DNA from: an uncultured archaeon
GTDB lineage: Archaea > Asgardarchaeota > Thorarchaeia > Thorarchaeales > Thorarchaeaceae
Reading direction: 5' to 3'
NCBI GenBank assembly: GCA_964590575.1
Contig: CAZPWM010000060.1
Span: forward strand, 1-18,865
DNA: 18,865 nt
Part shown: positions 4,059-16,510 of the stretch, piece after piece
Layout: each line of letters opens with the position of its first letter
Numbering within the stretch: the stretch's first letter is position 1
Made by a program: the position numbers and the translations under genes
The notes under the pieces: model-generated
Databases searched by the model: none
Told to the model about the DNA's origin: nothing
Seen by the model: the letters and a program-made list of their open reading frames with translations, nothing else

Positions 4059-5594
4059 TTAGTTTAGATTATTTTGAAACTGGAGTACTAGATACGTGAC
4101 GCCCCCAGCATAAGCAGATACGATTCTCTTGATACGATGCTCATCATCAAGATGGTCGATCTCACCTGCTGTGATGTCGGTCCGGGCGGATTCTTCTGCA
4201 ATAAATCTTGAAACCCATGGGATATCCATGACTGCTTCTCCCACATTCAATAATTGAAGTAATCTATAGGCAGTTTCAAAGCATAGAGTTTGTGTAAATC
4301 TCTCTGATTCTTCACCAAGAGACTCCCTGTGATTTTCCACAACTCCAACAATAGCATCGAATGCTTCATTCACTTTGTCGATCAGCTCGTCTGCCTGCAT
4401 ATCTTCGAGGTTCTTGTCCTCTGCTCTCTGTTTAAGTGATGAGAGCGCCACTCCAAATCGTCTTTCCGGAGTTATTTGGGGTTTCTCTCCTGTTCTAGCA
4501 CGATGACTGAGGATACTAAGTTCTACTGCTAGAGCTGCAGCTCTATCTGCAGAATCAGTAAGCCGCTGTGCAATTTCCTTTGCTTCTCCATTGAGTAAGT
4601 CAACAAAGAGAGATAACTCCCTATTCTTTCCTCTACCTTGGCGCACTCTCAATGTATCTGCGTAGTGGTCTGCAATCACTTGAATCAAATATGAGAAGAA
4701 ATCAACATCAATCCACATCCTTTTCTCTCCCTCTTGTTCAGATTTGAACAAGGAACAAGTACTCAATCGCGCTGCATTCTGCCTAAGCACTTCTAGAGCA
4801 GTGAATAGCTTACCATAGATACCCAAATTCCCTATGAGTGGCCAATCAAATGGTTTCCGAGACCCACCCCCAACTATCTGGTTCTTCAAGGTCGTTTTTG
4901 AATGCATTACAATAATGTACGAAGTTGTTTCCTCTATGAGCTTTTCTTCATTAAGAGTGAAAACAGCATCGAGGTCAAAGAGACATCCACTCGATTTCAT
5001 TAGAACTAAAGCAATCAACGATTTCAATCGTTGAGATGTCATCGAACTATCAATTGCATAACCCCTCCCAATTGGATTTGGGCGGAAAACAATATCTATT
5101 ATTCCTCGGTATGACATACTTACATTCATTTGTGATGCTAGATTTGAGCGTGACTCATCAGACGATATGAGGTTTTGAACAAAGATTTTGATATCAGTAG
5201 ATGCAAAATCCTCTGGTGCTGCGACCGGATCTATTACTACCTTCGGTATTACCCACAACCAGAGTAAGGATACAGCTTCATCCCTTGCAGCGCCTATCAC
5301 TTGTTGACCTGATTGGAACTCTTCTGCATCTAGACTGAATCCAACCCATCTTGGCACATCCATCAGGAACTTTAAGGTTTCATCATCATGGAAAGCTTGT
5401 GAAAGAATGTGTTTCTTGATTTCTCGATACATCTCCTCTGGATCTGATGAAGTTACTGAGAAACCTGCTAAACCAAGCTCTTCTCTTATCTCAAAAGATG
5501 TCTTTCTACTCCATTCCTCTATAGTTCTATAAAGAATTGTTGTGTGAAGATTTTCCACTACAGCTCTCGTAGTGTGCGTCAGGTCTGAGGTCAT
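4059..5594 (-). CDS. Hypothetical protein, probably largely alpha-helical and cytoplasmic
   Basis: 511-aa ORF with ATGA overlap to the upstream gene; no motif recognised. Confidence 0.85.
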   Translation of the reverse strand: MTSDLTHTTRAVVENLHTTILYRTIEEWSRKTSFEIREELGLAGFSVTSSDPEEMYREIKKHILSQAFHDDETLKFLMDVPRWVGFSLDAEEFQSGQQVIGAARDEAVSLLWLWVIPKVVIDPVAAPEDFASTDIKIFVQNLISSDESRSNLASQMNVSMSYRGIIDIVFRPNPIGRGYAIDSSMTSQRLKSLIALVLMKSSGCLFDLDAVFTLNEEKLIEETTSYIIVMHSKTTLKNQIVGGGSRKPFDWPLIGNLGIYGKLFTALEVLRQNAARLSTCSLFKSEQEGEKRMWIDVDFFSYLIQVIADHYADTLRVRQGRGKNRELSLFVDLLNGEAKEIAQRLTDSADRAAALAVELSILSHRARTGEKPQITPERRFGVALSSLKQRAEDKNLEDMQADELIDKVNEAFDAIVGVVENHRESLGEESERFTQTLCFETAYRLLQLLNVGEAVMDIPWVSRFIAEESARTDITAGEIDHLDDEHRIKRIVSAYAGGVTYLVLQFQNNLN

Positions 5595-6472
5595 TTTTCT
5601 CTCTCCTCAAACAACTTACTCATTACATCCTGACGTGAAATACTTCCCTGAAGCTCAGATGTGATGAAAGCACGCATATCGTTGATTGCTCCTTCAACAT
5701 TGATTTCTTCACCTTCATCTGCAAGCTTTGAGAATAGCAGGTTGCTGACCTCTTCTCCTAAATCAACCTCATCTGGAAAATGCATGCTAGAGTCTAATTC
5801 TTGTTCATCACTGTAAAGGACTTCGACAATGGTACCATAGGGATGTTTCTGGTTTCGTAAGTAGACTCGATTCCGTTTCGTTAATTCATAAAATTCGATG
5901 TCATCAAGCAACTTCTTGAGTTTCGATTGAAGGAATGAACTAGATACGTATGCTCTCTTTAGTTCACTCAACGGGATTCTCTTAGCTAGACTTGAAGCGA
6001 TTTGTATCTCGCGTTTGTAATTGAAGGTATCATAAGATAATCCCGAATCCTTCAAGAAGGATTCAGCCTCGAAGCTTCCAAGTGTATCATGTGTTATCTC
6101 AATGGGATTTATGCCTCCATTCTCGCCAAGCTTGATTCCTCCGCCCACATCAAAGGTTCTTACATCCTCTGGTCTAAAACTAGGTAATACGACTCCAGAA
6201 AGGGTTCTTTCAGTGACCTCAATTAGAACCGCATCAACCGATGTTTGTTGTGAGGAGCAATAGAACAAACCTGGGAGGAAAGCATAGAGATTCTCTTGAC
6301 TTGACATATTTTGTCGTTCAAAGTCAGTTCTAACTCGAGGCATAGAATATCCAATACCATTGAAATACCCTAAATCAGAAATACCAATTAACCACTCATC
6401 TTCAGGAAGTACACTTTCCTGAATCTCTACAAGCTGCAGGGATCTCTTGATTGGAATATACACTCGCTGCAC
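5591..6472 (-). CDS. Hypothetical protein
   Basis: 293-aa ORF, GTG start, coupled to 4059..5594; acidic C-terminal region. Confidence 0.82.
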   Translation of the reverse strand: MQRVYIPIKRSLQLVEIQESVLPEDEWLIGISDLGYFNGIGYSMPRVRTDFERQNMSSQENLYAFLPGLFYCSSQQTSVDAVLIEVTERTLSGVVLPSFRPEDVRTFDVGGGIKLGENGGINPIEITHDTLGSFEAESFLKDSGLSYDTFNYKREIQIASSLAKRIPLSELKRAYVSSSFLQSKLKKLLDDIEFYELTKRNRVYLRNQKHPYGTIVEVLYSDEQELDSSMHFPDEVDLGEEVSNLLFSKLADEGEEINVEGAINDMRAFITSELQGSISRQDVMSKLFEEREK

Positions 6473-6540: not shown

Positions 6541-8367
6541 TTAACTTTCATGACGAACCACAAAAACTCCTATTGCAATAATCGCAATGGCTCCAAGTAT
6601 AATAGCTGGTACTAGGTAAGATCCTACTCTAAATTCTGGAAAGTGCGGGTCAGTCTTTTCTAAGTACTCCCTCAAGTTTGAAACACCATCTTGATCAGGG
6701 TCCTCTGCGGAGTCATTAAGAGTAGGATTGAGATAGTTTTCCACCTCCCACAAGTCTGGCATTGAATCTGCGTCTGTGTCTTCTGAATTTGGGTCACAGT
6801 GGTTAAGAAATTCCTCTAGATTTGAGAGGCCATCAGAATCTTCATCCAATTGCGCATCATTTGCGTTAAGGGGATCTAATCCGTGCTGTATTTCCCATGA
6901 ATCAGACATCGAATCGGAATCTGTATCATTCGAAAACCTTGACGTACCAACGATCATCTCTTGACCGTCGTTGATGGTGTCTAAATCTGAATCCATTGAA
7001 AAGAATTCTTGATCGAACCAAAATTCTTGACTATCTGGCACGTCATTATCATCGATGTCAGTTTCGTATGTGATTTCCAGTTCGTATCCAATGCTTGTTT
7101 CCGACGGATTGAAAACACTCAAGGTGTAGATGCCTTGCATTGCCACAGATTGACTCAGAATGAGAGTGGATTCCCAAGGTGAAGGTACAGGATTTTCAAT
7201 CTGGGCTAGTTGCCAACCTAGTGTGTCGGTTAGAGTGATGCGAGTGCCTCCACCCCACCATCGACAAGAAACATTGATTGTTGTAGGAGTCGTAATGACA
7301 ATCGCGTATGTATTTTCTCGACCTTGTTGTAGTATGAATTCGTCTACAACGACTCTAGGCTCTTGATATGCACGTGCCAACGTAAACGCAATACTGGCAC
7401 CAATTGCCTTCACGGCTTCTATAGCAACAGTATAATTGTAAAGTGGATTATTCCAAACATCGGAAGGCGAATGGTATGCAGTGTCTATAGTAAAACCAGT
7501 TTCAGTTGCTAAAAGTGAGGGATACCCCTCCGCGATGAATGATGCATGGTCGGACGAATATCCTCCAGCCAAATCGTTTAATTCAATAGGCTTTATCATA
7601 TGGAAACCATAGTTCTTACTCATGGCTCTAGTAAGGTCTGCCCAGTACAAACCGTCTTGATAAGTTCCAGTCTGATATCCCATCCAGAGTTTGCTATCAC
7701 TCAGAGCATAAGGATGTGGCACTAGTAGCATGTCAATATTGTAGTAGAGTAAGATATCGACTCCCCTATCCGATAAAATTCCAGCAACTTCTCTACTACC
7801 TCGTAAACCAATCTCTTCAGCATTCCATGCTCCAAAGTAGATGTCTATTGGCCATTCGTACCCACTAAGAACTCGTGCAAGTTCCAAAGCAGTAGCAATT
7901 CCAGTTGCGTCATCATTAGCACCTGGTGCATCGGGGACAGAATCGAAATGACCTCCCACCAGAAACGCAGGACCGTCAACAGGTAAATACCCTTGGAGTC
8001 GTCCAAGAACGGAATTATAATCGCCTAGAATCTCAACCTCAATTCTTCCATTGGAAACCTCTACAAGTTTGTCTGCAATCCAATCCCTTGCTACAATATT
8101 ATTTGATTCCAAATCTGCAGGATTTACATATTCTCTTGAACCATTTTCTGTGAGTTCGATGATAAAGTTTCGAAAAGAACTTAGGGACACTCTATTGAAA
8201 ACTTCGTTTGAGTAATCTACGCCATAGATTCTTTCTATTTTAGCTGCAAGTATGGTTTCATCAATTGGCTTGATTTGATTAGAATGATCATCATGTGCAG
8301 TCGTTGTACCAAATGGAGTCAGGACTATTAGCGTACAAATGACGACGAATATGGAATACTTCTTCAT
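6541..8367 (-). CDS. Exported M28 family metallopeptidase with beta-sandwich domain, Asp-rich Ca-binding repeats and C-terminal membrane anchor
   Basis: Signal peptide MKKYSIFVVICTLIVL; complete site GGHFDS, GANDDATG, NAEEIGLRGS, NIDM, SDH, YHSPSD; ATG 8367 has GAGGT upstream (GTG 8388 is the alternative). Confidence 0.92.
   Translation of the reverse strand: MKKYSIFVVICTLIVLTPFGTTTAHDDHSNQIKPIDETILAAKIERIYGVDYSNEVFNRVSLSSFRNFIIELTENGSREYVNPADLESNNIVARDWIADKLVEVSNGRIEVEILGDYNSVLGRLQGYLPVDGPAFLVGGHFDSVPDAPGANDDATGIATALELARVLSGYEWPIDIYFGAWNAEEIGLRGSREVAGILSDRGVDILLYYNIDMLLVPHPYALSDSKLWMGYQTGTYQDGLYWADLTRAMSKNYGFHMIKPIELNDLAGGYSSDHASFIAEGYPSLLATETGFTIDTAYHSPSDVWNNPLYNYTVAIEAVKAIGASIAFTLARAYQEPRVVVDEFILQQGRENTYAIVITTPTTINVSCRWWGGGTRITLTDTLGWQLAQIENPVPSPWESTLILSQSVAMQGIYTLSVFNPSETSIGYELEITYETDIDDNDVPDSQEFWFDQEFFSMDSDLDTINDGQEMIVGTSRFSNDTDSDSMSDSWEIQHGLDPLNANDAQLDEDSDGLSNLEEFLNHCDPNSEDTDADSMPDLWEVENYLNPTLNDSAEDPDQDGVSNLREYLEKTDPHFPEFRVGSYLVPAIILGAIAIIAIGVFVVRHES
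6650..7060 (-). repeat. Protein-level TSP3-like Asp-rich repeats (D-x-D-x-D-x-x-x-D/N-x-x-E...L-D/N-P)
   Basis: DIDDNDVPD, DSDLDTIND, DTDSDSMSD, DEDSDGLSN, DTDADSMPD, DPDQDGVSN; boundaries approximate. Confidence 0.85.
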
Positions 8368-8380
8368 TTCAGGACCTCTG

Positions 8381-10231
8381 TTATCCACCTAGATTACGAG
8401 TTCGCTGAACATAAAGAAGTGCACCGATTAGAGCAATTGACAATAATGGTACTGAAATCCAAGTCACCGGGATTTCCATTGCTTCAGGTACTTGAGGGTT
8501 CGTATGGTTAATATACTCCTGAAGATTGGTTATGCCATCCCCATCCGCATCAAGCATTGAGTCGTCAACTAATGGGTCCAGTCCGTTTGCTACTTCCCAA
8601 TAATCGTCCATAGCGTCTGAGTCGGAATCAGTAGAGAATAAGTTGAGTCCTCTAGAGTATTCTTGAGCATTACTAAGGTGGTCACCATCTGCATCCTCAT
8701 TTGCATCTGCGGGATTCAGAGGATCTAGTCCATTATCCACCTCGAATTTATCGGGCATTGTATCTCCATCACTGTCTGCACTCATCAAATCTGTGCCGAG
8801 GAAAATCTCTTGAGCATCACTAAGTTCATCCCCATCTTGGTCTGACTCGAAGAGACCCGCGTCAATCCAGAATTCATGAGAATCCCCGACATCATTGCCA
8901 TCTATATCTGCGTTAAAGGAGAGCTTGAGTTCATAGCCAACTGGAAGCACATGGTCTTTGAATACCACAAGAGTGTACAATCCCTTTGTGGTTAATGATG
9001 GACTGAACACATTAGTGGGTTCCCAGGCTGATGAGTGGTTGAAAATTCCGGATGACACAAGTCCGCCTGAGGGGTTGAGTAAAAAGAATGATGATGAACC
9101 TCCAAACCATCTAGCTGTGAAATTCAGTGTTGTTGGGGTACTTATTGGAATGTAAAACGTTCTAGTCGTGGGGATGGAGAGAGTGAAGTTGTAGTTCAAT
9201 ATTGTCCGTTCACCATATGTTCTACCCATGATGTGTGCCATACTAGCACCAATTACTGCAGTTGTTTCACGACCAAGATTGTAGTTGAACTGATAGTAGT
9301 CCCATTTATCATTCCCATTGTGATATGACATGTCACTAAGATAGCCCGACTCAAAAGCACACATGGAATGAAAGCCCCTGTTGTAAAATGCGTAGTGATC
9401 AGATAATTGCCAAGCCACGAATTCAATTGATGGAATGGGGACTATCAAGTCATCCCCAATATTGTTACTCATCATGCGAGCAAGTTCCGCCCAATATTGT
9501 CCGAGGTGATATCCCGATTGTCCCCCCATCTCATATCCCATCTGAATTCGCTCGTCTGAAGGCGCACTTGTATCTTGAACCAGAATAGTGTCGACATTAT
9601 AGAGCATCAAGAGCTCAATTCCTCTATTGTTGAATTCAATAGCAACCTCTGGACTCCCTTGCATAAACCGATAGCCGAATAGACCATTGAATGCAATGAA
9701 GTATATGTCAAGTGGCCATTCATACTGTGACATGACCTTTGCAAGTTCTAAAACTGCTGCGATACCGCTCCCATCACAATTCGCACCGTCTGAGAAATCT
9801 GGTGAGTCATAGTGTGCTGAAACAGCAAATGCTGGATTATCCCCTGGGAGGTATCCAGGCAGCTTTCCAACTATGTTTTTGTAGTTCCCAACTTCTTCAA
9901 CTTCGATTCTACCTTTTGAGAGTGTCACAAGGCTCTCTTCAATATATTCTCGGGCATTTCTGTTTCCTTCCAAATTAATCTCAGCCGCGTTCATTATGAA
10001 TCTGGTTCCAATTTCAGAAATCTCCCTCACGAAGTTTCTGTAGTCTGTGGTTTTGACACTGGAATAGATGATTTCTGACAGGTCTGTTCCATACACCCTC
10101 GGAGTAGATTCAGACACCACCTGCGCTGGAATGGCACCAATTGTAGAATTGAGGGTTTCATCATTCAAGATTGGGACTGGTGTAGCACAAAGTAATATGA
10201 TCAAGAACCCTAGAAACAAATACCGTTCCAT
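8381..10231 (-). CDS. M28 peptidase paralogue with remodelled, probably non-proteolytic active site; same domain architecture as its neighbour
   Basis: Signal peptide; SAHYDS retained; GANCDGSG (Asp to Cys); FNGLFG in place of NAEE; NVDT, SDH and YHNGND retained; Asp-rich repeats and C-terminal TM helix. Confidence 0.88.
   Translation of the reverse strand: MERYLFLGFLIILLCATPVPILNDETLNSTIGAIPAQVVSESTPRVYGTDLSEIIYSSVKTTDYRNFVREISEIGTRFIMNAAEINLEGNRNAREYIEESLVTLSKGRIEVEEVGNYKNIVGKLPGYLPGDNPAFAVSAHYDSPDFSDGANCDGSGIAAVLELAKVMSQYEWPLDIYFIAFNGLFGYRFMQGSPEVAIEFNNRGIELLMLYNVDTILVQDTSAPSDERIQMGYEMGGQSGYHLGQYWAELARMMSNNIGDDLIVPIPSIEFVAWQLSDHYAFYNRGFHSMCAFESGYLSDMSYHNGNDKWDYYQFNYNLGRETTAVIGASMAHIMGRTYGERTILNYNFTLSIPTTRTFYIPISTPTTLNFTARWFGGSSSFFLLNPSGGLVSSGIFNHSSAWEPTNVFSPSLTTKGLYTLVVFKDHVLPVGYELKLSFNADIDGNDVGDSHEFWIDAGLFESDQDGDELSDAQEIFLGTDLMSADSDGDTMPDKFEVDNGLDPLNPADANEDADGDHLSNAQEYSRGLNLFSTDSDSDAMDDYWEVANGLDPLVDDSMLDADGDGITNLQEYINHTNPQVPEAMEIPVTWISVPLLSIALIGALLYVQRTRNLGG
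8500..8910 (-). repeat. Protein-level TSP3-like Asp-rich repeats
   Basis: DIDGNDVGD, DQDGDELSD, DSDGDTMPD, DADGDHLSN, DSDSDAMDD, DADGDGITN; boundaries approximate. Confidence 0.85.
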
Positions 10232-10316: not shown

Positions 10317-11618
10317 GTGTCTAAAATCAAGGTTGAAAAATCAATGCCGCTAGTAGATTTTCCCACAATCGTCAAAATTAAGGACCCTATTCATGGATAC
10401 GTTTCATTAACAGCTCTGGAAAAAGAGATTATAGATTTGCGACTTAGTCAAAGACTCCGTTATATACAAGCCCCCGCAGGACTCTCTCTGGTCTATCCTG
10501 GTGCTGTCACATCCTTGATGGGTCGGACATTTGGATTCATGCATATGACTGAGGTTTTTCTCGAATATCTTGGCGGGGACATGGATGAGGTACTCAAGGG
10601 TCGACTAGCATCCTTATTACTCATGTTGACTAACGGTCCATGGGCGAATATATCTGAAGAATATCTTTCTGTGCGTGGCATTGATAGACCAAAGATTACT
10701 CGGATAATCGTCGAAGAATCCAAAGTGGGAGAGCTTGTAGAAAAACATGGGTTCACAATAAATGAGGTGGTTGAACTCATTCAGAAAGGAATCCCCGTCA
10801 AGGGAATTCGTCTTGATCTTATTCACTGCCCAATCAATCCCGAATTGATTGATGATCTCGAGCGAGACTCGTATTTTGCCGGAGTTGAATATGCTCAGCT
10901 AGAGTTTAGGCGACTCTTTACAGCAACTAGGATTGCGAAGAACAAGATTGCAGTCGAGCGTAGTTCTCTGTTCACACTCGAGTCTTACCTATCTGCTGCT
11001 GCAAATATGTTTGAAGCTGTCTATTTCCATAAAACGGTACGAGCTGCAGAGCTCATGTTACTCAGAGTGCTCGATGAAGCAGGGTCTCAACTGTTCTGTC
11101 TACCGACAGAGGATTCCGAATCATTTCTTAAATGTGATGACCTGACTTTTCTGTACCGTTTACTCCACGTTTCTCCTGATGATACTGAAGAGCTGCGTAC
11201 TGCGAATCGTATCTATGATGATTTCAGTAAAAGGAATCTTATCAAATTGACAAGTTCGAGATCTATCTCAGACCCAGCATTCTTATCAAGACTTTCTACC
11301 GCTGATGGTTTGTATGAACTGGAGAAGGAGATAGCAGATGATGCAGGAATTGACCCCTCCCTTGTCTATGTCGACTTTCCTGATAGAGCCTCTGTGACAT
11401 TCTATCCAGGACGTTTTAGTTTTGAAGATTTGGTTCTCTTTGAGCGAGGTTCAACTGGTTATGAGTTTTGGCACGCAACTGATGTAAGTCTAATAGCTAG
11501 GAGTTTCTCCAGAATCTTGAAACCAGTGCGTGTTTACACAACTCGAGGTTATAGACCTAAACTGAAGAAGTCTGCAGATAGAGTCCTAGAAAGTGCTGAA
11601 CCGATTGAAAACAAATAG
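10317..11618 (+). CDS. SAMHD1/dNTP triphosphohydrolase-like HD-superfamily protein lacking the HD motif (pseudoenzyme)
   Basis: IKDPIHGY, QRLRYI, LVYPGA, RDSYFAGV and MFEAVYFHKTVRAAE match the family; LLLMLTNGPWAN replaces LLHDIGHGPFSH; start GTG 10317 or ATG 10344. Confidence 0.88.
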   Translation: MSKIKVEKSMPLVDFPTIVKIKDPIHGYVSLTALEKEIIDLRLSQRLRYIQAPAGLSLVYPGAVTSLMGRTFGFMHMTEVFLEYLGGDMDEVLKGRLASLLLMLTNGPWANISEEYLSVRGIDRPKITRIIVEESKVGELVEKHGFTINEVVELIQKGIPVKGIRLDLIHCPINPELIDDLERDSYFAGVEYAQLEFRRLFTATRIAKNKIAVERSSLFTLESYLSAAANMFEAVYFHKTVRAAELMLLRVLDEAGSQLFCLPTEDSESFLKCDDLTFLYRLLHVSPDDTEELRTANRIYDDFSKRNLIKLTSSRSISDPAFLSRLSTADGLYELEKEIADDAGIDPSLVYVDFPDRASVTFYPGRFSFEDLVLFERGSTGYEFWHATDVSLIARSFSRILKPVRVYTTRGYRPKLKKSADRVLESAEPIENK

Positions 11619-11680
11619 TGTGTGACATTCCGCAATATATAATATCTACAACTCTATCCGTTATATTACTGGTGAGGAAA

Positions 11681-12181
11681 ATGAGTGACAAACCTATTGC
11701 AATAATTGAACAAGTGATATCAGCGCCCAATTTCTTGATGATAGTAATTGGAGCTATAATCTGGATATTAGCTTCCTTTATACCGTTCATTGGATTTTTA
11801 TTCAGTACCGTTGGTTTCGGACTTACTACGTTTGCGACTATAGAAGCTGCTATGACGAAACCTGTGACCTCAGCACTACCTGGTTTTTTGTTGGGTGGGA
11901 TAATACGAGTCATAGGTTATCTTCTTATCTTCATTCCGTTTGCTGGCGCCATAATTAGTCCCTTTGTTATTATTCCTGGAAATGTTCTGATTCTTTTCTT
12001 TGGAGCTTCTCTAGCTCTTCAGAGGGCTGACATACCTATCGTAAAGGACCTCGAAGATTTCATCGACTCAAGGAAAAAGAAAGAAGTTCCGAAGAAAAGC
12101 GAAGAAGCCCCTAAGAAAAGCGAAGAAGTTGTAGATGTCGAAGAAGAAACTACGGACGAATCAGATACAACTGAACAATAG
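11681..12181 (+). CDS. Hypothetical membrane protein (about 4 hydrophobic segments) with charged, acidic tail
   Basis: ATG 11681 preceded by GGTGAGG; hydrophobic segments with repeated FIPF; E/K/D-rich C-terminus. Confidence 0.82.
   Translation: MSDKPIAIIEQVISAPNFLMIVIGAIIWILASFIPFIGFLFSTVGFGLTTFATIEAAMTKPVTSALPGFLLGGIIRVIGYLLIFIPFAGAIISPFVIIPGNVLILFFGASLALQRADIPIVKDLEDFIDSRKKKEVPKKSEEAPKKSEEVVDVEEETTDESDTTEQ
12092..12128 (+). repeat. 21-nt-period tandem duplication encoding PKKSEE twice
   Basis: AAGAAAAGCGAAGAAG exactly at 12092-12107 and 12113-12128. Confidence 0.9.
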
Positions 12182-12293
12182 AAGGTTGACTATTACTAAG
12201 CCTAAGGAAGGGGCTCACCTGAAATTCCCTTAATAGTGTATCATGAAAATCAGATGTACCTAACAACTCCCTATCTCTCAGTGGTGCATTGTA

Positions 12294-14570
12294 GTGTTCT
12301 CATGTACGAGATGCGGTGACTCCCTATTCATTCGCAGTGTTGATATGAAGGATAAAATCCTGACAATGGAGGTGCAGTGCCTTAGAGGACACAAAAGTGT
12401 TCGCCGCCTTTCTGAACACCAGGCAACGGAGATGGCTCCAGAAGTATTCAAACGACTCTATACCTGCACAGATTGCGGTTCTAATATGACACTTATTGAA
12501 GAACGAGGTGCTGGTACAAAAATAGAAGGTGTTTTTCTCTGTCCAATACACGGACCGCAGAAACGAGAGTTCCCATGTTCTTTTCATGCAACTGTTGAAC
12601 TAGCTGGCGCTGATGTTGACAGTCCTCGTTCAATCATTGATTCTTATAGATGCCCCCAATGTGGCCTTGTATATGCTGTCACTTCAATTGATCAACGACA
12701 AGGAGTTCTAGAGGTTGAAACACGATGCGCTAATGGTCATAAAGCTACTAGATACTTACCCCGTAGTCTTGATACTACATTGCTCAAGAATATTCTTCAA
12801 AGAGTTGTACATTGTGATCGGTGTGGCTTACCAGGGCATATAACTGATACAGAAGATCGGGGAAATACTACACGACTAACAATAGCCTGTCCTATTCATG
12901 GAACAACGAAAAAAGACATTCTTTCCGCACAAGTGGATCTTCTTCGAGAGGCTATATCTGAAATTCCTGAGGATGCAGTTGTAAAGTCGTCATTGACAGC
13001 TCATGATTGTCGCCGTTCCCTTGCAATCAGGAGCATTGAGGAGGACAAGCAAGGCTACAAACTGAAATGTGTTTGTCCGGGTACAAAAGTCCTATCTGAC
13101 AGAATTTTACCTCTCACATGGAATGAACCGGTCATTAAACGAATAACATCTGCATTACTAACTTGCGATGAGTGTGGACAGCTCACTCATATTCTTGACA
13201 AAAAGAAGCTCAAGAAAAAAGTTGGTTTCAGAATCGTCTGCCCAGTACATGGTGTGATGACTCGAGAAGCACCGCCTGATGTCTTCAAGCTAGTAGATGA
13301 ACATCAAGCTTCGATTGATCGCATGCCCTCGATTGTGAGGAGTTTGAGCTGTGAAAAATGCAGCATGCCAATGAACGTTCGTGATGTTGAGGAACGTCGT
13401 GGTCTGATTGAGTTTGATGTTGATTGTAGAAATGGACATAGGAGCAAGCGTCTATTCGTTCCAGGTCTTGATCAAAAAACCCTCATAGGTCTCTACAAAA
13501 AATTGTATCAATGCCCAGAATGCTACGAATCACTTGACCTGGTCTATATTGAACCTCGGGGTCGTGAGGACAGGGTTGTACTATTGTGCTCACTTCACGG
13601 GAAAATCGTTCTAGACATCCCGCCAGACCATGCAGAGGCGATGCAAAGCGCCTATAATGAGATGCAAGCAGACAAGATCAAACCTCCAGTTGAAGTACTT
13701 GAACACGAAACCTCAGAAATTCTCGAAGCTTCAGAAGAATCATCTTCAGGGAGTGACACTGGAGTTATTGTTCTCCGAGGTTGCGAGATTGTTGGGGGTA
13801 AGTTCGATTTCAAAGTCAAAATAAAGAATGAAAGTGGTTATGTGATTACCAACGCCACTGTTTCTATCGTTGCATATCCCCAAGACTGCATGGAACTAGC
13901 AGGAGAAAATGTCAAGACAATCTCGCGAATCGAAGTTGATGGGTTTAGGAGCCCTCAATTCACATTCTACCCGACAAAAGATTGTGTTCAAGGTAAGGTG
14001 GTTGCAACTGTATCATACATTGATTTCTTAGATCAGCTGCACACTGTGAGTGTTGAACCATATCTGATACGATCAGTGTGTGACTTGCTTCAACCCCTAA
14101 AGAAGACCTCAGAAGCATTCGAGCTTGTGTTGACCGAGCTTGAGAAGACACAGCAAGAACAGACTCTAGACTGGAACGCTCAAGTACTCTTCACTAAGGC
14201 TGAGAAGATTCTACCTGCAAAGAACTTCCACATAGTTGATAGTGAGGAAAAGATTGTACGTGGAGAATTCATTGGCACTATCAGAGGTTATGCAGAAGGA
14301 AAGTACACCCAGAAAAAAGTTGCAGTTGTCCTACTAATCACCGGTCCTGAGAATGGTCGTCATTCATGTGTGAGAGTTGAAGCATTAGGTGAGGATGTAG
14401 CTATGCTCCCAACCACAATCGATGAGTTAGCTGATACAATGGATTCATGGATATGCCTTCGATGTGGTGCACCATTAGAACCTGAACAGGTAGAAGAGAT
14501 GGGCCGGAGATTGCCAATTCGTTGCAAATACTGTGTTCACACTTTGACCATAGCTCTCTATCTACAATAG
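12294..14570 (+). CDS. Protein with eight Cys3His metal-ribbon repeats, putative adaptin-appendage-like (beta-sandwich plus platform) domain and C-terminal C4 zinc ribbon
   Basis: 758 aa; CxxC-x21-CxxGH alternating with CxxC-x21-C(P/S)xHG; acidic linker; beta-rich domain from about aa 490; CLRC...CKYC at the end; GGTG before the GTG start. Coding status is solid; the domain call is inference. Confidence 0.85.
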   Translation: MFSCTRCGDSLFIRSVDMKDKILTMEVQCLRGHKSVRRLSEHQATEMAPEVFKRLYTCTDCGSNMTLIEERGAGTKIEGVFLCPIHGPQKREFPCSFHATVELAGADVDSPRSIIDSYRCPQCGLVYAVTSIDQRQGVLEVETRCANGHKATRYLPRSLDTTLLKNILQRVVHCDRCGLPGHITDTEDRGNTTRLTIACPIHGTTKKDILSAQVDLLREAISEIPEDAVVKSSLTAHDCRRSLAIRSIEEDKQGYKLKCVCPGTKVLSDRILPLTWNEPVIKRITSALLTCDECGQLTHILDKKKLKKKVGFRIVCPVHGVMTREAPPDVFKLVDEHQASIDRMPSIVRSLSCEKCSMPMNVRDVEERRGLIEFDVDCRNGHRSKRLFVPGLDQKTLIGLYKKLYQCPECYESLDLVYIEPRGREDRVVLLCSLHGKIVLDIPPDHAEAMQSAYNEMQADKIKPPVEVLEHETSEILEASEESSSGSDTGVIVLRGCEIVGGKFDFKVKIKNESGYVITNATVSIVAYPQDCMELAGENVKTISRIEVDGFRSPQFTFYPTKDCVQGKVVATVSYIDFLDQLHTVSVEPYLIRSVCDLLQPLKKTSEAFELVLTELEKTQQEQTLDWNAQVLFTKAEKILPAKNFHIVDSEEKIVRGEFIGTIRGYAEGKYTQKKVAVVLLITGPENGRHSCVRVEALGEDVAMLPTTIDELADTMDSWICLRCGAPLEPEQVEEMGRRLPIRCKYCVHTLTIALYLQ

Positions 14571-14647
14571 AGCACTAGTATGCACACTTACGTAATATCT
14601 TTTAGGAAGTAGAGTGCATCTGACATAGTTTCATTTCCGAACGCCTA

Positions 14648-16510
14648 GTGGAGGAGAGAACGATTTTCACATGTAAGAAATGTAAAGAGCCATTCTTTGT
14701 TCAGTCTGGAGAACTGAAAGGTAACACACTTCGTGTTTACTGCCAATGTCTGAAAGGTCACAAGGGTAAGAGGGATATTTCAAGATACCAAGCTGACAGT
14801 ATGGCTCATGAAGTGTTTCAGGGCATTTTCACTTGTGTGGAATGTGGATTGACGATGTCCTTAATGAACACTGATGTGGGTCGCCAAAAGGCTGAGTATA
14901 TCTTCATTTGTCCAATACATGGACCTCAAAGAAGAGAGATTCCTGCTTTCTACCATACTTCTGTCACAGGAATGCAGGCGAATATGAATTTCTCAAAATC
15001 AATTCTTGACTCTCTGAGTTGTCCTAAGTGTGGGGAGGTTTTTGTTGCTACTGAGATTGCTGAGAAGAAAGGACTCCTTGAGATCAAAGCACGGTGTTCT
15101 AATGGACACAAAGAAATGCGGTTTGTTCCAAAGATAGCTGACGAGTCTGTTCTCAAAACAATGGTCAAGCGACTCATCCACTGCGATGAATGTGGCCTTC
15201 CATGCAAAGTACTAGGTTCGCAACCCAAAGGGAACAAAGCCCAGTTAGAAATTGCGTGTCCCGCACATGGAAAAATGAAGAAAGAACTCCCAGCTGAATA
15301 TGCATGGATGGTGGAATCGATTGTTGAAGCCATGTCTGAGGGTAGCATTGTAAAATCGATGTTGAACTGTCGTGATTGTGGGAAGTCATTATCAATCAAA
15401 GCAGTCGAGCTTGACAAGATGAAATACAAACTCAAGTGCAGTTGTGCGAATGGCCATAGTGTTGAACTCTCACAACCATCTGATTTGGATGAGGAAGCCA
15501 TTGATGCTATTGTCGGTGGTGTTTTGAAATGCAATGACTGTGATTTGGTGACTGACATCGTGGAAACAAAGGTCAGTGGTAACAATGTGGAACTGAAGCT
15601 ACTCTGTCCTGTTCATGGTGATTTCAAGAAAGGAATAAGTATGGGTGTTTACAAACACGTTGAGGAACGAGACAAACAAGTAGACAGGATGCCATCGACT
15701 GAAGAGAGTCTCAAGTGTGATAAATGTACATCTCCGATGACAATTCGCGGGACCAAAGTTCACGACAACATCGTTGAACTAAAGATGGACTGCATGAATG
15801 GTCATGGTCATGAACGTTATTTGCATGTTGGAGCCGACGATCCTGTGATTGAACGATTCTATCATCAATTGTTCGAATGTCACAAATGTCACAGTCCATT
15901 GACTCTGACAACCATTGGTGAGAAGGATGATAAGTCCGAAGCTTTCCTCATCTGCGAAAACCATGGTGAGAGCAAAGTTGAGATTCCAACAGCGCATGCA
16001 AAATTAGCTCGAGATGCATACCTCTCAACTATGTCAATGTCCGATCTAGAGAAGCTTCTGGAAACCCGTTTGCAGACAGAAAGAGCTGCAGAATACCAAA
16101 TTGAACCAGATGCTGATATCCAAGAAATGGTAGATATTGTGAACGATATCATTGAGCAGCAGAGTGTGAAGTTCATTGGAGAGAAGAGTAGAACCAAGAA
16201 TGGCGAGGAATCATGGTATTATGGAAAGGCTCTAGCCGGTACCGAATATATTGTGATTGGATCAGTTTCAAAAGAAAACCTGACAATGCGCATCTCAGTT
16301 GCTAGTGATGACGAGAATAAGATGAACATGCTCCTATCAGAGATGCGTGACAATCTACGAGAGGTCTTACTCAAACTTCAAGATAAGACTGGAGACACAG
16401 CTCCAAAGAAAATTCAATGTGCTCAATGCGGTGCAGCGCTACCCAAACGAGCTCTTCCTGGTGAAACTGTGATTTGTGATCACTGTGGAACTCCGTTGCA
16501 TTGGACTTAG
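14648..16510 (+). CDS. Paralogue with eight Cys3His metal-ribbon repeats, putative platform-like alpha/beta domain and C-terminal C4 zinc ribbon
   Basis: 620 aa; eight intact repeats colinear with the upstream gene; CAQC...CDHC at the end. Confidence 0.85.
   Translation: MEERTIFTCKKCKEPFFVQSGELKGNTLRVYCQCLKGHKGKRDISRYQADSMAHEVFQGIFTCVECGLTMSLMNTDVGRQKAEYIFICPIHGPQRREIPAFYHTSVTGMQANMNFSKSILDSLSCPKCGEVFVATEIAEKKGLLEIKARCSNGHKEMRFVPKIADESVLKTMVKRLIHCDECGLPCKVLGSQPKGNKAQLEIACPAHGKMKKELPAEYAWMVESIVEAMSEGSIVKSMLNCRDCGKSLSIKAVELDKMKYKLKCSCANGHSVELSQPSDLDEEAIDAIVGGVLKCNDCDLVTDIVETKVSGNNVELKLLCPVHGDFKKGISMGVYKHVEERDKQVDRMPSTEESLKCDKCTSPMTIRGTKVHDNIVELKMDCMNGHGHERYLHVGADDPVIERFYHQLFECHKCHSPLTLTTIGEKDDKSEAFLICENHGESKVEIPTAHAKLARDAYLSTMSMSDLEKLLETRLQTERAAEYQIEPDADIQEMVDIVNDIIEQQSVKFIGEKSRTKNGEESWYYGKALAGTEYIVIGSVSKENLTMRISVASDDENKMNMLLSEMRDNLREVLLKLQDKTGDTAPKKIQCAQCGAALPKRALPGETVICDHCGTPLHWT

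Follow-up and report, generated by a model that had tools for sequence, protein, structure and literature searches.

Two neighbouring Thorarchaeota genes predicted to join zinc-ribbon-like repeat arrays to an adaptin-type ear or a part of it

In eukaryotes, an ear domain carried on a hinge is a hub for short peptide motifs. The ears of AP-2 alpha- and beta2-adaptin and of gamma-COP (1w80, 3h1z, 1e42, 1r4x and 9qpq_H in the Protein Data Bank, PDB) are built of an immunoglobulin-like (Ig-like) sandwich followed by a platform and stand on a disordered hinge. Domains of this kind have already been published for archaea: the parts of Liu et al. (2020 preprint) and Eme et al. 2023 cited here report adaptin/COPI C-terminal domains in Asgard proteins, and the cited sections of Makarova et al. 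2024 describe archaeal adaptin appendage-like domains, some with a zinc ribbon or a transmembrane linker, which are proposed to be interaction hubs in protein sorting, with Meth_adaptin and Asgard fusions to Vps28-C or longin as examples. In this study, we describe two adjoining genes of an uncultured Thorarchaeota archaeon, P1 and P2. They lie on contig CAZPWM010000060.1 (contig C60 of genome G000, 3.4 Mb and 91% complete), whose whole length of 18,865 bases is the window analysed here, and the near-identical and related proteins are named in their sources as Candidatus Thorarchaeota or, for a few of them, Promethearchaeota. The interval 12294-16510 is filled by two co-directional open reading frames on the forward strand, P1 (12294-14570, 758 amino acids (aa)) and then P2 (14648-16510, 620 aa), both with a GTG start, and the coordinates and frames given for them in a preliminary description of the sequence were right. 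P1 is predicted to consist of a zinc-ribbon array of four double units, (AB)4, an acidic hinge, an appendage-like ear and a terminal four-cysteine (C4) ribbon, and P2 of an (AB)4 array with eight intact units, a helical linker, a platform-like domain and a C4 ribbon.

As compared to the adaptin and gamma-COP ears, P1 has the same order of sandwich and platform behind a disordered hinge, but its sequence identity to them is 7-16% and below the Pfam thresholds of the adaptin and coatomer families, its body is a zinc-ribbon array and not a HEAT solenoid, and its platform is capped by a C4 ribbon. The published archaeal appendage proteins, as presented in the sections of Makarova et al. 2024 used here, share with P1 the Ig plus TBP-like region and sometimes a zinc ribbon or a transmembrane linker to an outside domain, whereas they occur in neighbourhoods of endosomal sorting complex required for transport (ESCRT) genes or together with Vps28-C, steadiness-box or longin domains, none of which the Pfam scan of P1 and P2 detected. 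Our searches of the literature on Asgard adaptin appendages and zinc ribbons did not turn up an ear joined to a zinc-ribbon array; the (AB)4 Cys3His array with an ear does not appear in the cited parts of Makarova et al. 2024, Liu et al. 2020/2021 and Eme et al. 2023, whose supplementary tables may list the family. Adaptin-like ears in Asgard archaea are thus already published, and the zinc-ribbon array with an ear is a new domain combination within a known theme. The preliminary description had recognised no named family, which stands for the array, as no Pfam or NCBIfam family spans it and the generic zinc-ribbon matches are below threshold apart from one summed score, and falls short for the whole proteins, as the appendage-like ear of P1 and the platform-like domain of P2 put them in this published Asgard theme.

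The repeat arrays of P1 and P2

Counted as a regular expression, the motif CxxC-x21-Cxx(GH|HG) has eight matches in P2 and seven in P1, which is 15 of the 16 units, and the spacer is exactly 21 residues in every one of the 15 matches. Unit starts alternate 54 and 62 residues apart, and the knuckles end in GH in the odd units and in HG in the even units; the 54+62 periodicity, the alternating endings and the shared paralogous strings that had been quoted earlier are therefore all present. The earlier count of eight units in each protein, all 16 with the 21-residue spacer, holds for P2 and fails for one unit of P1, namely unit 5 (aa ~236-265), in which Ala replaces the first Cys and the His that should follow the third ligand is missing. 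On the forward strand, the di-units of P1 are AB1 at 12294-12641 (aa 1-116; sites C4/C7/C29/H33 and C58/C61/C83/H86), AB2 at 12642-12989 (aa 117-232; sites at C120 and C174), AB3 at 12990-13340 (aa 233-349; unit 5 degenerate with A236, C239, C259 and C261, unit 6 intact at C291) and AB4 at 13341-13691 (aa 350-466; sites at C353 and C407). The four di-units of P2 occupy 14648-16042 (aa 1-465), with CxxC at residues 9, 63, 125, 179, 241, 295, 357 and 411. A chance origin of the repeats was ruled out by residue shuffling, in which the pattern appeared 0.0003 times on average and once at most over 20,000 shuffles per protein.

The ligand columns of the arrays are conserved in 28-30 of 30 P1-type and in 32-34 of 34 P2-type orthologues, and the terminal C4 ribbons, at 14445-14567 in P1 (C721, C724, C744 and C747) and 16403-16507 in P2 (C591, C594, C610 and C613), are conserved in all 30 and all 34 of them. 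Unit 5 of P1 is degenerate in 30 of 30 P1-type orthologues, with S or A at ligand 1 and K or G at ligand 4, while its remaining cysteines are retained to various degrees (C239 in 29, C259 in 24 and C261 in 29 of the 30). Because the same degenerate state is found in all of these orthologues, unit 5 is, judged by their alignment, an old, fixed and non-canonical unit, and a non-canonical metal site may exist there. By motif, up to nine metal sites are predicted for P2 and eight canonical ones for P1, so that the earlier estimate of up to about nine metal ions per protein fits P2 better than P1; the C4 ribbon counted in it was confirmed in both.

P1 and P2 are the only array proteins of their genome and are 37% identical over ~457 residues. 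When the di-units of the two proteins are compared one by one, those at the same position in the array are 41, 39, 34 and 32% identical and those at different positions 19-28%; the unit-by-unit match described earlier is thereby borne out, and the (AB)4 array is, by this sequence comparison, older than the duplication that gave rise to P1 and P2. The absence of a transmembrane helix was also confirmed, as the maximum Kyte-Doolittle mean over 19 residues is 1.04 in P1 and 1.13 in P2 and neither protein has a hydrophobic stretch.

An AlphaFold2 model of P1, for which 68 rows of P1-type and P2-type proteins and of relatives with the module alone were aligned, reached a mean predicted local distance difference test score (pLDDT) of 89.3 and a predicted template modelling score (pTM) of 0.59. 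In the model, each array unit runs from the CxxC through two strands, the second of which ends at the third Cys, to the CxxH knuckle, and from there through another strand into one or two helices; pLDDT in these units is mostly >90. As read from the DSSP secondary-structure string, the predicted layout of the unit is that of a zinc ribbon, and together with the strongly conserved ligand columns this agrees with a real series of small units that bear metal sites. The relative placement of the P1 domains is uncertain at a pTM of 0.59, and neither a rigid array nor the elongated scaffold proposed in the preliminary description is supported by the model. Could the arrays serve as zinc stores or buffers, with the repeats as metal sinks? 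Each chain has up to 8-9 predicted sites, but a structural and binding role is indicated by the exact spacing, by conservation at many positions other than the ligands and by the fusion to an interaction domain. Structural Cys3His ribbons hold zinc tightly with little exchange. A storage function is hardly credible on these grounds.

The start of P1 bears on the first unit of the array. The protein on record for this contig (P0252) has 741 aa and begins at Met17, whereas the GTG at 12294 adds the first CxxC knuckle (12294-12344). Since C4 and C7 of this knuckle are conserved in 29 of 30 orthologues and are cut off by the Met17 start, the GTG is probably the better start and the recorded one too short. 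Three contigs of a metatranscriptome library from salt marsh (X20) are identical to 12102-12375 and 13679-13913, and one pair of them covers the intergenic stretch that separates P1 from the membrane-protein gene before it. As a sign of expression these contigs are a faint hint, for DNA may be present in the library and the contigs cannot show transcription; the stretches without a matching contig carry no information.

The ear of P1 and the C-terminus of P2

The preliminary description had taken both proteins to consist of the array and a C4 ribbon and had thereby overlooked the appendage-like ear of P1 and the platform-like domain of P2. Behind the array, P1 has an acidic hinge (13692-13757, aa 467-488) with a net charge of -8 and a pLDDT <50, which is predicted to be disordered. 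The model then shows an all-beta region at ~489-601, an alpha/beta region at 602-717 and the C4 ribbon at 718-758; the first corresponds to a predicted Ig-like beta-sandwich subdomain (13758-14096) and the second to a predicted platform subdomain (14097-14444), both assigned by the model and by structure comparison. In a Foldseek search of the PDB, the first compact match of P1 was the gamma-COP ear 9qpq_H (E 4e-9, TM-score on target 0.72, root-mean-square deviation (rmsd) 4.0, 241 columns), and further matches included alpha- and beta2-adaptin ears (1w80_A with E 5.9e-9, 1e42_A, 1b9k, 1pzd and 1r4x) and BBSome subunits. VIA-align, as an independent comparison, gave the same picture with 1w80_A (Z 14.8, 213 aligned, model residues 483-716), 3h1z_A (Z 14.2, 207 aligned), 2mj7, which is the platform of AP-4 beta (Z 13.4 with 112 aligned at an rmsd of 2.4, model residues 597-718), and 1r4x_A (Z 12.6), while many single Ig-like domains lay at about Z 10, below the ears. 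The sandwich of P1 also aligns to the GAE domains 3mnm_A (Z 9.7) and 2ymt_A (Z 9.4). Both lists, made with the whole model, are dominated by the ear and are uninformative on the array.

P1 thus has, in the model, an Ig-like sandwich and a platform that solved ears match jointly with the sandwich, and residues ~489-717 are, as modelled, a two-subdomain appendage of the adaptin/gamma-COP type. A HEAT or alpha-solenoid trunk is absent before the hinge, where the array stands instead, and the Pfam scan gave no Adaptin_N match. Pfam did not match the P1 ear to Alpha_adaptinC2, B2-adapt-app_C or Coatomer_g_Cpla at E<=1; two relatives (L023 and L021) reached 19.4 and 13.7 bits with Alpha_adaptinC2, for which the cut-off is 27.6 (E 0.0013-0.23). 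Among the conserved positions of the ear and ribbon are an R-G-x-A-x-G-K-Y-T stretch at 664-672 and W719. BBS2/7/9 and FANCB/FAAP100, which occur as paralogous pairs, are among the best Foldseek matches of P1, presumably through their ear-like sandwich and platform. Their long alignments have an rmsd of 28-37 A and a TM-score of 0.13-0.17 and thus reflect local domain likeness only, and unlike P1 and P2 these subunits have beta-propeller bodies and no zinc ribbons.

The C-terminus of P2 could be related to the ear by sequence. Residues 463-615 of P2 match a 457-aa protein of another Asgard genome (G129; E 2.7e-16), and the P1 ear profile spans this same protein from the sandwich to the ribbon (profile positions 2-264, E 4.6e-19 with Z set to 1000). 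With Coatomer_g_Cpla the P2 C-terminus scored 15.2 bits (E 0.024) against a cut-off of 31.2. P2 has no Ig-like sandwich region, and it would therefore keep the platform (16103-16402, aa ~486-585, limits approximate) and the ribbon without the sandwich. This assignment is transitive, through the G129 protein, because the ribbon was the only part that aligned, with a probability of 20%, when the profiles of the two C-termini were compared with each other directly.

Relatives, pairing and gene neighbourhood

The AB di-unit is also found in other Asgard families. All eight di-units of the window align with seven from such families, with C7, C29, C58, C61, C83 and H86 invariant, and in five of these seven examples a Pro-rich linker and then a double zinc ribbon come after the AB part. 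A di-unit profile found 39 proteins of 121-161 aa (E 2e-26 to 1e-12), and the 11 profile matches that carry an organism name are all Asgard (Jord-, Frey-, Hod-, Hermod- and Promethearchaeota). In a survey of 400 Asgard genomes the di-unit was present in 149, distributed by family as follows: f1 68/85, f2 1/1, f14 19/19, f16 6/6, f17 3/3, f18 2/2, f19 2/2, f22 45/135 and f23 2/4, with no match in f8 (0/31), f10, f11, f13 and f21. Outside f1 and f2 there is one di-unit per protein, and the fourfold arrangement is found only in the family of the window and in one genome of the sister family. Based on these searches, the AB unit is an Asgard-restricted building block. The stand-alone AB proteins (121-161 aa as matches, 163-241 aa as called open reading frames) have the same ligand columns and spacing as P1 and P2, but with one di-unit and not four, mostly with a Pro-rich linker and a DZR-type tail and not an ear, and with a shifting His in the A unit (HG, H-x or x-H); their only annotation is 'zinc-ribbon domain-containing' or hypothetical. 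In genomes G129 and G124, on the other hand, a single AB di-unit occurs with sandwich, platform and ribbon in one protein, and because of these fusions the link between AB and the ear appears older and wider than the family of the window, the special feature of which is the fourfold expansion. The G124 protein (L042:3658-5409, 583 aa) has the AB di-unit, further CxxC pairs, a borderline PCI-like match (23.6 bits, cut-off 22), the sandwich, the platform and the ribbon.

The neighbourhoods of stand-alone AB genes at seven loci had no recurring informative neighbour. A cation-efflux protein was encoded there, as were an SPFH protein, at a distance of some genes, and a family B DNA polymerase, which was beside the AB genes in two related genomes only. 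At two of the loci (L039 and L044, in G102 and G100), the genes near the AB gene, which stand in mirrored order in the two genomes, encode a pair of ~330-aa paralogues whose N-terminus is a zinc ribbon, a helical protein of 172 aa, a cation-efflux/ZT_dimer protein and an SPFH (Band_7_1) protein.

These relatives also bear on the question whether the arrays are nucleic-acid-binding ribbons of a TFIIB-, Elf1-, RpoP- or recombinase-like kind, with the ear used for recruitment. Orthologues carry the automatic names 'RNA polymerase subunit RPC12/RpoP', 'Elf1' and 'ssDNA-binding Zn-ribbon topoisomerase 1', and basic residues are conserved after the GH and HG knuckles. On the 15 di-units Pfam found only generic ribbon families, all below threshold, among them Zn_Ribbon_TF in six (best E 0.0019) and Zn_ribbon_recom in four; in the whole proteins Zn_ribbon_recom (PF13408) reached 30.3 bits in P2 (cut-off 25.3) as a sum with no single passing stretch, and gave nothing in P1. 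A search of solved structures with the AB profile found no nucleic-acid-binding ribbon of note, the matches to the AB region being weak (aIF2-beta with E 0.37-0.45, HypA with 0.09). In the same search, the only significant match, 9sfa_A (E 3.8e-5), was rejected, as it aligns to the double-ribbon tail of the stand-alone proteins and not to the AB unit. Moreover, the two arrays are near-neutral (net charge +5 and -3), no DNA- or RNA-related gene is consistently beside the stand-alone AB genes, and the units are repeatedly fused to an ear, a domain that binds peptides in eukaryotes. We therefore regard nucleic-acid binding as unlikely.

The ear and ribbon form a module that extends beyond the array proteins. 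A scan of 1.84 billion representatives with P1 gave 362 proteins at E<=1e-3, and for most of the best 150 of the 362 the best stretch was P1 aa ~490-756, with 35-59% identity in proteins of 125-2867 aa. Eight module proteins were scanned for domains; six of them have beta-helix (NosD), SBBP or LVIVD beta-propeller or PKD-like regions N-terminal to the module, and the other two are short and without a Pfam domain. Five module proteins read by eye have a hydrophobic N-terminal start, then outside-type domains and a single hydrophobic helix, after which an Arg-rich stretch and a linker lead to the module, and in P0118 and P0112 a signal-peptide-like start and one hydrophobic helix with an Arg-rich stop-transfer before the module were read in the same way. 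P0118, P0112, P0115, P0128 and P0151 are large predicted surface proteins with outside domains of beta-helix, beta-propeller or PKD-like type, and their tail module is 52-59% identical to that of P1. Going by this topology, such proteins would constitute a family of single-pass receptors with an adaptin-type ear on the cytoplasmic tail. Another group (P0104, P0105, P0107 and P0109, 755-793 aa) has two tandem modules behind a helical N-terminal region and no zinc-ribbon array. In the genome of the window there are five module copies, namely P1, an adjacent pair on C139, a single copy on C161 and a distant copy on C44. The C139 pair (4262-6094) consists of two adjoining matches in separate frames of 371 and 351 aa, which may represent separate genes side by side or a single gene with two modules that a frame change has broken.

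With P2 as query, array matches were found in 75 of the 85 genomes of the window's family. Almost every genus has P1-type frames (~760-790 aa), as does the sister family (G311), and P2-type frames (~615-650 aa) are restricted to genera g1, g6, g12 and g16. Both types could be read, by eye from the search rows, in 32 genomes and share a contig in 25; in 24 of these 25 they are adjacent and co-directional with P1 upstream of P2. It had been proposed that P1 and P2 act as a heterodimer or co-polymer, in which the equally spaced arrays could zip together in register. The recurrent gene order agrees with this proposal, as do the four AB di-units and the identical 54/62 periodicity kept by both paralogues and the presence of the ear-like BBSome and Fanconi core pairs, which heterodimerise, among the structural matches. 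However, equal spacing is expected anyway from a shared repeat fold, and each paralogue occurs without the other. The P1-type gene is alone in genera g2-g5, g7-g11 and g14 and in the sister family; 11 of the 13 matching genomes of g12 have only four di-unit matches, which is one array gene; and in three g12 genomes, G368 (a single contig), G370 and G372, the array matches of the P1 query fall only on a P2-type frame of 627-633 aa, which in G368 occupies the position where P1 sits elsewhere. The exception among the 25 same-contig genomes is G320, with the two genes 1.7 Mb apart. An obligate heteromer is thus unlikely on this distribution, which favours overlapping or successive roles, and we hold the heterodimer or co-polymer in general to be improbable. 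In G320 the P2-type gene (L029:7600-9441, forward) stands divergently beside a gene for a 316-aa ear-only protein (L029:5386-6333, reverse) that is 35% identical to the P1 ear.

Upstream of P1, and co-directional with it, are genes for a 433-aa HD_assoc_2 protein (10317-11618, forward) and a 187-aa multi-pass membrane protein (11618-12181, forward), given here as context. The latter has several hydrophobic helices, an acidic tail rich in Lys and Glu and no Pfam or NCBIfam match, and it is directly upstream of the P1-type gene in 7 of 12 loci. Ten genera share the order HD_assoc_2, small membrane protein, P1-type and then P2-type gene, together with UbiX and DUF2070, which are encoded on the other strand, and the flanking genes for pyruvate:ferredoxin oxidoreductase and M28 peptidase. 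In the window, two tandem paralogous M28 peptidase genes lie on the reverse strand at 6541-10231 (615 and 616 aa), of which relatives carry one or two at this place; the second has a sub-threshold match to a bacterial TSP3 repeat near its C-terminus. No ESCRT-type gene was found in the 12 syntenic loci compared against the genes of the window.

A possible adaptor role

The reading to which we lean, tentatively and aware that it may well be wrong, is that P1 and P2 are multivalent cytoplasmic adaptors or scaffolds for a putative partner. Their layout of array, hinge, ear and ribbon would resemble that of an adaptin large subunit with a different body, and they could act as adaptors or scaffolds on the cytoplasmic side of a membrane. 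Because the ear-ribbon module is 40-59% identical on soluble proteins and on receptor tails, it may dock in both onto a common partner, or the modules may dock onto each other. The array would offer up to eight repeated binding surfaces for a putative ligand that is more likely protein than nucleic acid, and the near-neutral charge, which is weak evidence, would fit protein binding better. P2 would be a younger paralogue that has lost the sandwich, can accompany or replace P1 and is not an obligate partner.

Several points weigh against this adaptor proposal. The partner, the ligand and the membrane association in it are each putative, Pfam places neither P1 nor P2 in an adaptin or coatomer family, and the failure of the direct P2-P1 comparison beyond the ribbon counts here as well. 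The fold of the repeat unit may match a known nucleic-acid-binding ribbon. The conserved neighbours (HD_assoc_2, the membrane protein, UbiX and DUF2070) suggest no trafficking role; their order reflects synteny of the whole region rather than a specific operon signal, so that adjacency within it carries little functional weight. No ESCRT gene is present on the 18.9-kb contig, while in the same genome Snf7 matches are on C18 and C13 and Vps4_C matches on C28 and C13. Furthermore, the function of the array appears to be dispensable, since several near-complete genomes of the family, among them G313 (98% complete) and G387-G389 (96-99%), have no array protein.

In another reading, the array would bind several copies of ubiquitin or of a ubiquitin-like modifier, as a multivalent receptor, and P1 and P2 would be ESCRT-0-like cargo collectors. 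The cited sections of Makarova et al. 2024 propose Asgard appendage proteins as functional analogues of ESCRT-0, and zf_UBZ matched 3 of the 15 di-units below threshold (best E 0.00086). No ubiquitin-binding family reached its threshold, however, and the contig has neither an ESCRT nor a ubiquitin gene, and we consider this alternative very unlikely. The adaptor proposal can itself be carried further, to a primitive cargo sorting in Thorarchaeota in which P1 and P2 cluster or coat ear-bearing receptor tails, by ear-ear or ear-array contacts, into membrane patches or buds, as an archaeal forerunner of adaptor and coat assemblies with a zinc-ribbon body and not a HEAT solenoid. This extension is speculative and would be rather surprising if it held.

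What the two genes add to the published theme is a sharply defined and highly conserved architecture, in which the predicted hinge and ear are set on a body of eight zinc-ribbon-like units, together with an AB double unit that the searches place in Asgard archaea and the same ear and ribbon as the putative cytoplasmic tail of many single-pass surface proteins. P1 and P2 are concrete, expressible proteins through which the binding partners of an archaeal ear could be sought. If no partner is common to the ears of the receptors and of P1 and P2, the combination would be a lineage-specific domain shuffle of moderate interest; if it is true that they share one, this would be direct evidence for adaptor-like sorting before eukaryotes.

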